Assembly (NCBI GenBank): GCA_003504275.1 | Contig: DOAO01000009.1 | Span: 24,405 to 88,404, forward strand | DNA from: Patescibacteria group bacterium | Lineage (GTDB): Bacteria > Patescibacteriota > Minisyncoccia > Phycocordibacterales > UBA12445 | Direction: 5' to 3' | DNA: 64,000 bases | Part shown: positions 14,067-15,015 of the stretch, one piece after another | How positions within the stretch are numbered: the first letter of the stretch is position 1 | Layout: every line of letters starts with the position of its first letter | Notes under the pieces: model-generated | Told to the model about the DNA's origin: nothing | Databases searched by the model: none | The model's input: the letters and a program-made list of their open reading frames with translations, nothing else | Made by a program: the position numbers and the translations under genes

Positions 14067-14093
14067 AAAGTAAAGATAAAAAAAATCCGACAA

Positions 14094-14336
14094 CCTTACA
14101 GGGAATCTTTCTCTACGAGAACAGTATAGGTTTCCCATTTTTTCGGATTGAAAAATCCTCAAAAACAAGGGAGAACCTTTTCGATTCCCTGACGTAAGCA
14201 AAGCAGTTTAAATAAGCAGGGAATCGGTCACACATAAATTTTCTTCGAAAATTTTGCTCGACCCCGCCTCAGCTCCCATTCTTACAGAATGGGTCCCGCT
14301 TCCGGCTTTCGATTCCCTGTAAGGTCTATAAATACA
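14094..14336. repeat. Four partial copies (10-26 nt) of the tRNA-Glu 3' end (T-loop to acceptor) in alternating orientation: 14094-14107, 14181-14199 (inverted), 14218-14227, 14311-14336 (inverted)
   Basis: Each matches cttacagggaatcg or its reverse complement cgattccctgtaag. Confidence 0.6.
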
Positions 14337-14340
14337 ACAA

Positions 14341-14368
14341 AAAAACCAAAGCTTTCACTTTGGTTTTT
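14341..14368. terminator. Bidirectional terminator directly 3' of tRNA-Glu, at the centre of an 83-bp inverted repeat (14311-14393)
   Basis: aaaaaaccaaag-ctttca-ctttggtttttt. The flanking 26-nt arms gattccctgtaaggtctataaataca and tgtatttatgaccttacagggaatc are perfectly complementary. Confidence 0.65.
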
Positions 14369-14376
14369 TGTATTTA

Positions 14377-14448
14377 TGACCTTACAGGGAATCGAACCCT
14401 GATTTACGCCTTGAGAAGGCGCTGTCCTAACCGTTAGACGATAAGGCC
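14377..14448 (-). tRNA. tRNA-Glu (anticodon CUC)
   Basis: Hand-folded cloverleaf: acceptor GGCCTTA/TAAGGTC with one G-U; D-arm GTCT-AACGGTTAG-GAC; anticodon stem GCGCC/GGCGT, loop TTCTCAA; T-arm CAGGG-TTCGATT-CCCTG. Strong overall similarity to bacterial tRNA-Glu. Confidence 0.85.
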
Positions 14449-14587
14449 ACTTATATTCAACTTTCAACATAACACAAACCCTGATTTCCTTCTTACAGAA
14501 GCAGTACACCTGTTCTGTTTTCTGCTTTGTTACTCTCGCAGAAAACCATCACAGGTCTTTCGAAATAATAACATTATTTCTCAACCT

Positions 14588-14720
14588 CTCGAAGGCGCTG
14601 TCCTAACCGTTACCCGCCCGACCAGAACGACTGGTCGTTCGGGCGGAGACGATAAGGCCACTTATATTCAACTTTCAACATAACACGAACCCTGATTTCC
14701 TTCTTACAGAAGCAGTACAC
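14588..14720 (-). pseudogene. Partial duplicate 2 of tRNA-Glu: promoter/leader plus 5' half to anticodon position 34, carrying a GC-rich palindromic insertion in the D-loop
   Basis: The minus strand reads the leader GGTGTACTGCTTC...TATAAGT, then GGCCTTATCGTCT-[insertion]-AACGGTTAGGACAGCGCCTTC, then diverges (GAGAGG) at the anticodon. The leader is about 98% identical to the one preceding the real tRNA. Confidence 0.6.
14613..14646. repeat. GC-rich palindromic mini-insertion, copy 2 (cccgcccg-accagaacgactggt-cgttcgggcgg)
   Basis: Outer cccgcccg/cgggcgg stem shared with copies 1 and 3. Inserted between D-loop positions 13 and 14, the same position as copy 1 in pseudo-tRNA-Pro. Confidence 0.7.
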
Positions 14721-14814
14721 CTTTTGGATATAATTTCGTAAAAACTCAATTCTATCTCAAGAAGGTCTTTCGTTTGGGTCCCCTCCCAAACTCAACCTCT
14801 CGAAGGCGCTGTCC

Positions 14815-14847
14815 CCCGCCCGAACGTACCCGTTCGGTACGGGCGGG
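14815..14847. repeat. GC-rich palindromic mini-insertion, copy 3 (reverse orientation of copy 1)
   Basis: Its reverse complement cccgcccgtaccgaacgg-gtac-gttcgggcggg matches copy 1 (2750-2781) except for the loop. Confidence 0.7.
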
Positions 14848-14859
14848 TAACCATTAGAC

Positions 14860-14875
14860 CTGTCTGCGCAGACAG
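14860..14875. repeat. Perfect 16-nt palindrome ctgtctgcgcagacag inserted in pseudo-tRNA copy 3
   Basis: Self-complementary; flanked by direct GTCT repeats. Confidence 0.5.
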
Positions 14876-15015
14876 ACGATAGGGCCACTTTTACTCTGGA
14901 ATAATAAACTATCTTTTGGTTTTAGTCTAGATATAGTTACTATTTTTATTTTTTCAATTAGATGGCCTAGGTTTTCATCCCCGTGTGTTCATCTATAATA
15001 TTTTTTTATTTAAAT

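Follow-up and report, generated by a model that had tools for sequence, protein, structure and literature searches.

How did the tRNA-Glu(CUC) gene of a Patescibacteria (CPR) bacterium come to be surrounded by pieces of itself? CPR genomes are tiny and gene-dense, yet in the window, the whole 64-kb stretch of DNA that was analysed, about 800 bp around this gene are taken up by a repeat family that is absent from Rfam. The intact tRNA-Glu(CUC) gene (14376-14449, minus strand) was identified by ARAGORN and scored 63.1 bits with the Rfam tRNA model. Upstream of it are two tandem units of 211 and 227 nt bearing its 5' part, and downstream are four T-arm/acceptor pieces in alternating orientation (14093-14107, 14180-14191, 14218-14227 and 14308-14326). 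A preliminary description of the locus had taken such fragments to be genuine derivatives of tRNA-Glu, and this was confirmed by ARAGORN, the Rfam model and a repeat map. The pieces are arranged as follows.

14093-14108, minus strand: displaced 3' piece of tRNA-Glu, AGATTCCCTGTAAGGT, spanning T loop through acceptor end; it directly adjoins the 3' end of E0 (see below) and pairs with 14311-14325
14308-14396, no strand assigned: long palindrome with a bidirectional terminator hairpin (14340-14369) in the middle, and with the tRNA 3' end plus trailer and an inverted copy of these (14308-14341) as arms
14376-14449, minus strand: intact tRNA-Glu(CUC) gene, CCA not encoded
14450-14488, minus strand: Y'2 and spacer, the 'leader' of the real gene, which by repeat comparison is the rest of a disrupted copy followed by a 25-nt spacer
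14587-14659, minus strand: X2, a copy of tRNA-Glu positions 1-40, including GAGA in place of U35-A38, with the D loop split by a 34-nt GC-rich hairpin (14613-14646)
14661-14699, minus strand: Y'3 and spacer, tRNA-Glu positions ~43-57 (GAAATCAGGGTTCG) followed by a 25-nt spacer to X2; 39/40 identical to the stretch preceding the real gene
14802-14886, minus strand: X3, which repeats tRNA-Glu positions 1-40 with 2 substitutions and is split at 14860-14875 by a 16-nt palindrome and at 14815-14847 by a GC-rich hairpin
14901-14929, minus strand: sigma-70-like promoter match TAGACT-17-TATTAT upstream of X3, a match to the consensus and the sole plausible one for the array

The two 5'-part copies, X2 (14591-14659) and X3 (14802-14886), are both on the minus strand, with repeat spacings of 211 and 227 nt. 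Both diverge from tRNA-Glu after C34 with an identical GAGAGGTTGAG, and the motif GGTTGAG-N(8-30)-CGAAAGACC occurs twice here, against 0.01 occurrences expected by chance. A common breakpoint within the anticodon had been proposed for the two copies. The shared GAGAGGTTGAG after C34 agrees with this, but G39-G40 of the tRNA are still alignable in the 5' copies past the 3-nt anticodon difference, so that the junction with the inserted element is most likely not in the anticodon but directly beyond position 40, C41-G42 having been replaced. The copies had also been described as a promoter/leader plus 5' half, with leaders about 98% identical. Near-identity was upheld, as the 'leader' is a 79-nt repeat whose copies are 97% identical; it is not a promoter, but is composed of the 3' end of the inserted element, then tRNA positions ~43-57, then the 25-nt spacer. 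The sole promoter matches within these 'leaders' would begin transcription inside a tRNA copy, and we rejected them. A region of 1032 nt covering the locus was 100% identical across four independent assemblies, and is therefore not an assembly artefact. The preliminary description had made its reading depend on variation among related strains: the four assemblies, all from one site, are invariant, yet single-unit relatives and filled and empty alleles were found elsewhere.

Every breakpoint of a tRNA piece at the locus directly adjoins a copy of the same conserved element, here named E. E is a discrete module whose structure is conserved and whose ends are sharp, and it forms a three-helix junction of 80-125 nt arranged as GGGUGAG-P1-CGCAAG-P2-GUGUACAG-P3, with about 25 invariant unpaired junction nucleotides, and sequence information drops to approximately zero directly outside GGGUGAG...AAGAAG. 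Standard pairs occupied 97.1% of the cells of the E alignment, and 16/16 modelled pairs had changed on both sides. The covariation score was 0.488, compared with 0.123 in shuffled alignments (0/500 reached 0.488) and at most 0.10 when pairing partners were slid. The helices contain 35 G-U pairs as against 7 A-C, and because of these G-U pairs the fold was assigned to the tRNA-sense strand. Covariation of this strength, together with the invariant junction nucleotides, exceeds the needs of a purely selfish DNA repeat, and suggests that the RNA itself is active in some way. The E family was defined by two covariance models, R1 and R2. Searching with R2, which was built without any sequence from the window, identified the following copies.

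14700-14797, minus strand: E3, intact copy (R2 77.4 bits, E-value 8e-18)
14489-14586, minus strand: E2, intact copy (R2 76.1 bits, E-value 1.7e-17)
14109-14233, minus strand: E0, degenerate third copy (R2 25.0 bits, E-value 1.2e-4 for the whole window; 28.8 bits with filters off; R1 20.1 bits)
14275-14300, minus strand: putative fourth element reduced to a remnant, AAGCGGGAC-CCAUUCU-GUA-AGAAUGG, similar to J2/3 and P3 (weak: R2 match at 14278-14360, 17.6 bits, E-value 0.009 for the whole window)

Across the 64 kb, R2 detected no copy besides E3, E2 and E0, the weak 17.6-bit remnant apart. E3 has helices P1 UUUGGG..CCCAAA, P2 ACCUU..AAGGU and P3 CUUCU-GUA-AGAAG, and E2 has P1 AAAUAAU..AUUAUUU and P2 ACCUG..CAGGU. 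E3 shares 90% identity with the element at related locus L093 but just 65% with the neighbouring E2, although the 40 nt flanking these neighbours are identical at 39/40 positions. In E0, P1 is made of T-arm sequence (14217-14225 pairs with 14183-14191), the other helices are P2 GGUUC..GAACC and P3 UUCUC-GUA-GAGAA, and the minimum-energy fold contains the same three helices. The four alternating T-arm/acceptor copies of the preliminary description are present, but they are not independent scars: two are the strands of P1 of E0, and a third is the displaced 3' end abutting E0.

E is present in hundreds of other contexts, many of them unrelated, in CPR bacteria, with a preference for tRNA genes and for the strand that these occupy. 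A model search yielded 126 matches in 100 loci; 41/126 copies have a tRNA within 250 nt, and of these 38 are on the strand of that tRNA and three, including the one at L093, are antisense to it. The exact 3' motif of E was present in more than 120 metagenome contigs among the matches listed. Metagenomes from groundwater, sediment and sludge contain the element in abundance, and two named CPR genomes carry it beside tRNA-Glu. Its contexts are heterogeneous, with copies in tRNA loops, at the 3' end of coding regions and in the large loops of further RNAs. The sites hit in tRNAs are the T loop, the D arm/26 junction and the variable arm, and large hairpin loops are hit as well. In 23 loci, part of the target is directly duplicated on either side of E, and a disrupted target was always accompanied by an adjoining intact copy of that essential target. 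Downstream of E at two loci, L031 and L061, is an intact tRNA-Asp with a long insertion in its anticodon loop.

Filled and empty alleles were found among related contigs with flanks 91-95% identical, one such polymorphism being at a non-tRNA site; these could reflect either insertion or precise loss of E. When the flanks of E were matched to an intact or empty copy, the gap was exactly 2 nt in 22/48 flank-pair matches, and any other size occurred at most five times. Where such a comparison is possible, E appears to replace exactly two target nucleotides. The site is located just 3' of RGG/GAG/GUG, often in a hairpin loop or at a stem edge, with the 5' flank biased to GGG/GAG/AGG. Comparison of element ends and of filled and empty sites revealed neither terminal repeats nor target duplication. 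Deleting E cannot restore the tRNA, which would still lack two nucleotides and some or all of its 3' part. E folds on one strand, prefers loops, replaces two nucleotides and shows neither terminal inverted repeats nor target duplication; together these features suggest an intermediate of single-stranded DNA, or of RNA, that is acted on in trans.

We searched for known families and for partners that could account for this behaviour. At gathering score, Rfam 15 identified only tRNAs in the window and in 30 related loci, and at E-values up to 10 it gave nothing relevant in the locus or in a canonical copy of E. The locus had no blastn match in a phage genome collection, and scanning viral contigs with two E motifs found none. 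We found no published description of E when the literature was searched by sequence and by topic. Clustering of 945 ORFs from E-bearing loci gave a single recurrent candidate, a large serine recombinase confined to one related locus group; no Y1 transposase family was found near any copy of E in these clusters, and no mobilising protein for E emerged from them. By-eye comparison showed that the junction strands of E do not fit a hammerhead core or a kink-turn. Two E copies lie after rplK, and E has some sequence resemblance to the L1 stalk. Mimicry of the ribosomal protein L1 site (H76-H78) was rejected, in E. coli alone, since the best R2 match to E. coli 23S rRNA scored 3.4 bits and was elsewhere in the gene.

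We consider it probable that three or more copies of E are nested at the locus, E being a small, strand-specific and non-autonomous insertion element that has repeatedly disrupted copies of tRNA-Glu. We infer the following order of events. E would have entered tRNA-Glu after G40, replacing C41-G42, and the disrupted allele would have been kept only as a partial duplication beside an intact gene; single-unit relatives (L006, L011, L025, L035, L057, L068, L076 and L085) are in the same E-disrupted state. The intact tRNA-Glu would now be transcribed through X-E from the upstream promoter-like site. In the lineage of the window, the X-E-Y'-spacer unit was presumably then tandemly duplicated, after which P1 of E2 and P2 of E3 may have been swapped with those of other E copies, and small GC-rich hairpins may have entered the dead 5' copies. 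A separate copy, E0, would have entered the T loop of a downstream 3' partial duplicate, and fold-back inversions may have produced the downstream palindromes.

The preliminary description had instead interpreted the fragments as attL/attR-type footprints of repeated integration and excision at tRNA-Glu by a tyrosine (or serine) integrase. The vicinity of the anticodon arm and the T loop are the classical sub-locations of integrases in tRNA genes, and the breakpoints here fall in both; a large serine recombinase also adjoins E in one locus group. However, the duplicated parts are 5' halves spaced 211/227 nt apart, which do not bound an island because they are only 211 nt apart, and in the repeat map the 3' pieces are inverted, not direct. 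The junctions abut GGGUGAG... and ...AAGAAG, the ends of E, rather than att cores, and they share no identical core; two nucleotides are replaced, whereas integrases keep a conserved overlap. The earlier statement that the window holds no integrase is in agreement with our results, as no recombinase was present in the 10 flanking ORFs, nor in 25 of 81 Pfam families listed for 44 further ORFs. An integrase origin is already contradicted by the anatomy of the junctions, and we regard it as highly improbable. What is retained from it is that insertion and duplication events recurred at this tRNA gene, but not that an integrase was their agent. A conservative 2-bp crossover by a serine recombinase or an IS110-like enzyme was also rejected, as the junction dinucleotides are unlike each other and the target dinucleotide is lost. 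The units could alternatively be parts of a functional tRNA that is interrupted by a group I intron, or that has the archaeal-type bulge-helix-bulge (BHB) design, either intron-containing or split, and the D-arm GC-rich hairpins are indeed intron-like. Group I introns are common in tRNA genes of Patescibacteria (PMC13011429), but no match to the Rfam group I model (RF00028) was obtained at E-values up to 10 in the locus or the canonical copy, and E is only 80-125 nt long. Removal of E gives no tRNA, the flanking pieces do not rejoin, and the neighbouring tRNA-Glu is complete and has the same anticodon, making such an arrangement barely conceivable. Its archaeal-type form was rejected: the units have no 3' acceptor strand, E follows the 5' part and is not the complement of any 3'-piece leader, and the genome is bacterial.

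The proposal that E is chiefly a host-useful, cis-acting RNA module is harder to set aside. The X-E arrays would then be functional leaders, acting as a self-cleaving or processing ribozyme, a protein- or tRNA-binding domain or a regulator of the tRNA operon, and spread would be secondary. This would suit the strong covariation on one strand, the invariant junction nucleotides, the co-orientation of E with tRNAs, and the apparent transcription of the intact tRNA-Glu through X3-E3-X2-E2 from one promoter-like site. The theta ribozymes (PMC10879173) provide a precedent for small ribozymes adjoining tRNAs. However, the contexts of E are very heterogeneous, the neighbouring tRNA copies are truncated and decaying (GC hairpins, substitutions in X), presence/absence polymorphism occurs at a non-tRNA site, and no known ribozyme or other Rfam family matches E even at E-values up to 10. 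We judge this proposal unlikely. Movement at the RNA level, in which a minimal intron-like or ribozyme RNA enters exposed RNA loops, swaps two nucleotides and is fixed in DNA by reverse transcription and recombination, would explain why the targets are single-stranded parts of folded RNAs and why E is on the sense strand in 38/41 tRNA cases; the RNA-type fold with G-U pairs and the lack of both target duplication and terminal repeats are also consistent with it. This reading is purely inferential, and seems to us distinctly improbable: there is no reverse transcriptase near any E copy among the ORFs of E-bearing loci, 3/41 copies, that at L093 included, are antisense to the tRNA, and no known ribozyme chemistry swaps a dinucleotide. 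Two further candidates were rejected. A MITE derived from a DDE element does not agree with ends (GGGUGAG and CUGUAAGAAG) that are not inverted repeats, or with filled and empty sites that differ by a 2-nt loss and no duplication. A diversity-generating retroelement would require a different order of parts, and neither an adenine-specific pattern (at L116) nor a reverse transcriptase was seen.

As the small insertion element that we favour, E resembles several known systems in part. Like REP/BIME, ERIC, RUP, Correia and Rickettsia palindromic elements, it is short (~100 nt), non-coding, multi-copy and often clustered or nested, is transcribed with its neighbours and has a stable fold. Rickettsia palindromic elements also insert within genes, including RNA genes. 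In contrast to these interspersed repeats, E is no palindrome and has no terminal inverted repeats; it has a three-way junction with ~25 invariant unpaired nucleotides, its covariation is strand-specific, and two nucleotides are replaced while the target is not duplicated. IS200/IS605-derived elements and REPs (HUH Y1) are similarly strand-specific, with hairpins near both ends and neither terminal inverted repeats nor target duplication, and they too insert 3' of a short motif (RGG/GAG/GUG for E) and favour DNA that is single-stranded or forms hairpins. However, they insert without target loss and their right-end hairpin is not terminal, whereas E loses 2 nt, has a terminal P3 and has an RNA-like fold with G-U pairs. 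tRNA-targeting integrative elements likewise leave an intact tRNA beside a displaced fragment and use the same two parts of the gene, the T loop and the vicinity of the anticodon arm, but E has no integrase, island or att core, its displaced pieces may be 5' or 3', and the insert is ~100-200 nt. The group I introns of Patescibacteria tRNAs (PMC13011429) are also structured RNA elements within tRNA genes of the same phylum, sometimes at the same locus as E (L031, L061); E differs in being two to three times smaller, with no group I core and no rejoinable exons. Three-way-junction self-cleaving ribozymes, such as the hammerhead, share with E its size, three helices around conserved junctions, multiple copies and a link to mobile DNA, but manual checking and Rfam showed that the junction sequences of E do not fit the hammerhead or other known ribozyme classes.

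The signature of E, with its one-strand fold, loop targets, 2-nt replacement and lack of terminal repeats, provides a handle on a new mechanism of mobilisation or a ribozyme activity. We tentatively raise the further idea, itself unlikely, that E belongs to a new class of self-mobilising structured nucleic acids: a three-way-junction RNA of ~90 nt, or a DNA strand of the same sequence, would enter exposed tRNA or hairpin loops and swap exactly two nucleotides by its own catalysis or through a structure-reading enzyme, and in reduced CPR genomes it would survive only at partly duplicated essential targets. The locus illustrates how an essential single-copy gene can tolerate invasion via partial duplication. 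Annotation and assembly are also confused by E, which generates pseudo-tRNA halves and breaks in contigs. The covariance model of E is ready for a census and for a search for a co-occurring enzyme. Relative to protein genes, the orientation of E showed only a weak bias, of 39 to 23.

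ARAGORN and Rfam call a single tRNA-Glu(CUC) gene in the window (14376-14449, minus strand). The window genes are bacterial housekeeping genes (ThrRS, DnaB and a ClpB-like protein) and the source is a CPR bacterium; the orphan protein adjoining the locus shows 100% identity to a protein named from Parcubacteria group bacterium GW2011_GWF2_38_76. As the preliminary description had reported, two extra copies of the tRNA-Glu 5' part (X2, 14587-14659, and X3, 14802-14886) lie upstream of the gene, at spacings of 211 and 227 nt in the minus-strand reading and repeat table, and both diverge from the tRNA after C34 with the same GAGAGGTTGAG. 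The four short T-arm/acceptor pieces of alternating orientation were likewise confirmed downstream. An assembly artefact was ruled out by the 100% identity of the 1032-nt intergenic region across four independent assemblies; two of the four contigs terminate within the repeat, as is normal for repeated DNA.

Both units in the window share one layout: GAGAGGTTGAG, a hairpin of 17-18 nt, CGAAAGACCT, another hairpin and GGTGTACTGCTTCTGTAAGAAG. Between the two units the hairpins differ completely in sequence, and the chance expectation of the motif in the window is 0.01. Aligned matches gave the consensus of the structured element, termed E: GGGUGAG, helix P1, CGCAAG, helix P2 (ACCUU...AAGGU with a variable inner hairpin), GUGUACAG and helix P3 (CUUCU-GUA-AGAAG). 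Sequence information drops to about zero directly beyond GGGUGAG...AAGAAG on both outer sides, so E is a discrete module with sharp ends. Covariance model searching yielded 126 copies at 100 loci; in their alignment 97.1% of cells hold standard pairs, and each of the 16 modelled pairs has changed on both sides. Covariation scored 0.488, compared with 0.123 in shuffles (0 of 500 reached it) and at most 0.10 with partners slid, in an alignment that had been fitted to the model and with P3 variation confined to copies that the search motif had not picked out. G-U pairs exceeded A-C pairs (35 versus 7), which places the fold of E on the strand that is the tRNA sense strand. No Rfam family matched E, even at permissive thresholds, and full-text literature searches by sequence and by topic returned nothing on it. 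E is distinct from the group I introns described in tRNAs of Patescibacteria (PMC13011429).

The whole 64 kb was searched with R2, a covariance model whose input copies all came from outside the window, with the following matches and no further E:

14700-14797, minus strand: E3, intact copy, 77.4 bits
14489-14586, minus strand: E2, intact copy, 76.1 bits
14109-14233, minus strand: E0, degenerate copy, 25.0 bits (28.8 with filters off)
14278-14360, minus strand: possible E remnant, weak match, 17.6 bits

E0 accounts for the downstream "scar field" of tRNA pieces. Its helix P1 comprises two of the T-arm pieces, 14183-14191 paired with 14217-14225, and a third (14093-14108), abutting the 3' end of E0, is a displaced tRNA 3' fragment that begins in the T loop. 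The fourth (14308-14326) forms the distal arm of a long palindrome with a bidirectional terminator at its centre, and also pairs with 14093-14107, closing a 233-nt structure (z-scores -8 to -10). What had been described as a promoter-bearing leader is the 3' end of E, followed by tRNA positions ~43-57 and a 25-nt spacer. This 79-nt stretch is indeed 97% identical between copies, but its reading as a promoter did not hold; just one promoter-like match was plausible, and it is located upstream of X3. Judging from this match to the promoter consensus, the intact gene is probably transcribed through X3-E3-X2-E2.

In a one-genome-per-species scan, the E arrangement was found beside tRNA-Glu(CUC) in two genomes, of Saccharibacteria (L006) and Paceibacterota (L011); the other 14 matches were due to chance, within unrelated sequence. 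The E 3' motif was present in at least 120 metagenome contigs from groundwater, sediment, sludge and microbial mats, and no E copies were found in viral contigs. Sites of E include the tRNA-Glu anticodon arm, T loops of tRNA-Ser and tRNA-Gly, a variable arm, the rplK 3' end and large loops in unknown RNAs. A tRNA gene lies within 250 nt of 41 of the 126 copies (one third), on the same strand for 38 of the 41. Copies are often clustered or adjacent.

Pairs or triplets a few nt apart (L089 906-1098, L095 2126-2318, L102 5832-6017, L072 5824-6007, L122 2507-3040), in tandem, convergent or divergent orientation, suggest insertion beside or into existing copies. Identical E contexts also occur twice, inverted and 5.7-9 kb apart, in L059 (1-83 and 5751-5833) and L062 (2606-2688 and 11574-11656), and may delimit a larger segment that is mobile or invertible. 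At L047 836-933 and L117 6121-6216, E lies directly on the rplK 3' end, with P1 built from the last rplK codons; in L117 the displaced original end encodes the same peptide as the new one, with synonymous differences.

E is present in L103 and L109 at a site that lacks it in L062, L136, L048 and L067, with 91-95% flank identity between filled and empty forms. For every E copy, we compared its flanks with an intact or empty version of its target. Of 48 matches, 22 had a gap of exactly 2 nt between the flanks, and any other length occurred at most five times; E proper (UGAG...GUAAGAAG) therefore replaces two target nucleotides. The pairs lost include AA, CG, CA and TT, and the replacement site is immediately 3' of GGG, GAG, AGG or GUG. 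By the same rule, the tRNA-Glu junction most likely falls after G40, with C41-G42 replaced. The 5' copies share a break, as first described, but the apparent break in the anticodon is the change of UCA to GAG, a 3-nt difference inside a dead copy.

The tRNA pieces had initially been read as footprints of a tyrosine integrase. Classical integrases leave a shared core and are excluded by the signature; the junctions have no such core, and each breakpoint abuts a copy of E. On balance we favour the reading of the locus as a nest of structured mini-elements, all copies from one undescribed family that is widespread in CPR bacteria; this is better supported than the integrase reading. DDE-type transposition, which leaves terminal repeats and a target duplication, is also excluded: at the sites compared with intact or empty copies E had neither terminal inverted repeats nor target duplication. 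A conservative 2-bp crossover was rejected since the target dinucleotide is lost. Single-strand HUH transposition shares strand-specificity, hairpins and a short 5' target motif with E, but differs in the 2-nt target loss. An RNA-level activity, as a ribozyme or by insertion into RNA loops, may be involved, and the degree of structural conservation makes this attractive. A likeness to the L1 stalk of 23S rRNA received no support from the model on E. coli rRNA. E belongs broadly among bacterial interspersed structured repeats and non-autonomous mobile elements, but none of the families compared has its architecture and insertion signature. That E embodies a new mechanism, of mobilisation or of a ribozyme, is a real though minority possibility.

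No recurrent partner protein was found near E, save for a large serine recombinase within a single group of related loci. In L048 (5730-6470; also L067, L045, L046 and L099), E shares a ~740-nt non-coding region with another E-like module; the region is divergent from a large serine recombinase of 519 aa, beside tRNA-Leu and tRNA-Lys. The stretch after E there resembles a tmRNA 5' end (GGCUGAUUUCGGAUUUC); neither Rfam nor ARAGORN called a tmRNA.

Excising E does not yield a tRNA, because the copy is truncated and two nucleotides are absent. Partial direct duplication of the target around E was seen in 23 loci. The layout is either truncated 5' part, E, short 3' stub, spacer and intact gene (E2 and E3 type), or intact gene, spacer, short stub, E and 3' part (E0 type). 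The polymorphic non-essential site has no target duplication. We propose that E-disrupted alleles of essential genes would survive only as partial duplications beside an intact copy. The duplication would have either formed during E insertion or been selected afterwards, with tandem duplication or single-crossover acquisition as candidate sources in the latter case. Two other tRNA arrangements were noted. In L039 (~4930-5250, minus strand), the D-loop insertion of an E-disrupted tRNA copy contains another, complete tRNA gene and is closed by a TTACCCGCC/GGCGGGTAA stem. In L061, L031 and L125, the intact tRNA-Asp downstream of E, beside the E-disrupted copy, has a long anticodon-loop insertion; this is probably a group I intron of the kind reported at position 35/36 in Patescibacteria.

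In relatives, one X-E unit precedes tRNA-Glu(CUC) or tRNA-Glu(UUC), with the unusual junction variants GGUUGAG and CGAAAG that are also seen in the window, indicating that the insertion at tRNA-Glu is old. The unit is doubled in the window. The 40 nt downstream of each E are identical at 39 of 40 positions, E2 and E3 are only 65% identical, and each has one hairpin of the tRNA-Glu subfamily type and one foreign hairpin; on another contig, a copy lying antisense in tRNA-Phe shares 90% identity with E3. These features are consistent with tandem duplication of the X-E unit, which would have been followed by hairpin exchange with other E copies. The D arms of the dead 5' copies would later have acquired GC-rich hairpins.

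These hairpins (CCGCCCG...CGGGCGG; 14613-14646 and 14815-14847) and a 16-nt palindrome (14860-14875) occupy differing D-arm positions in the dead copies, and similar hairpins occur at other CPR loci (L090 13859-13890, L048 3958-3984). They may constitute a second, even smaller palindromic insertion element. A 78-nt repeat of 86% identity (13605-13682 and 14006-14083) covers the RBS/upstream region of two consecutive small minus-strand genes, and L001 has a third copy, ahead of the following gene. The repeat may act as a common promoter or 5' UTR module.
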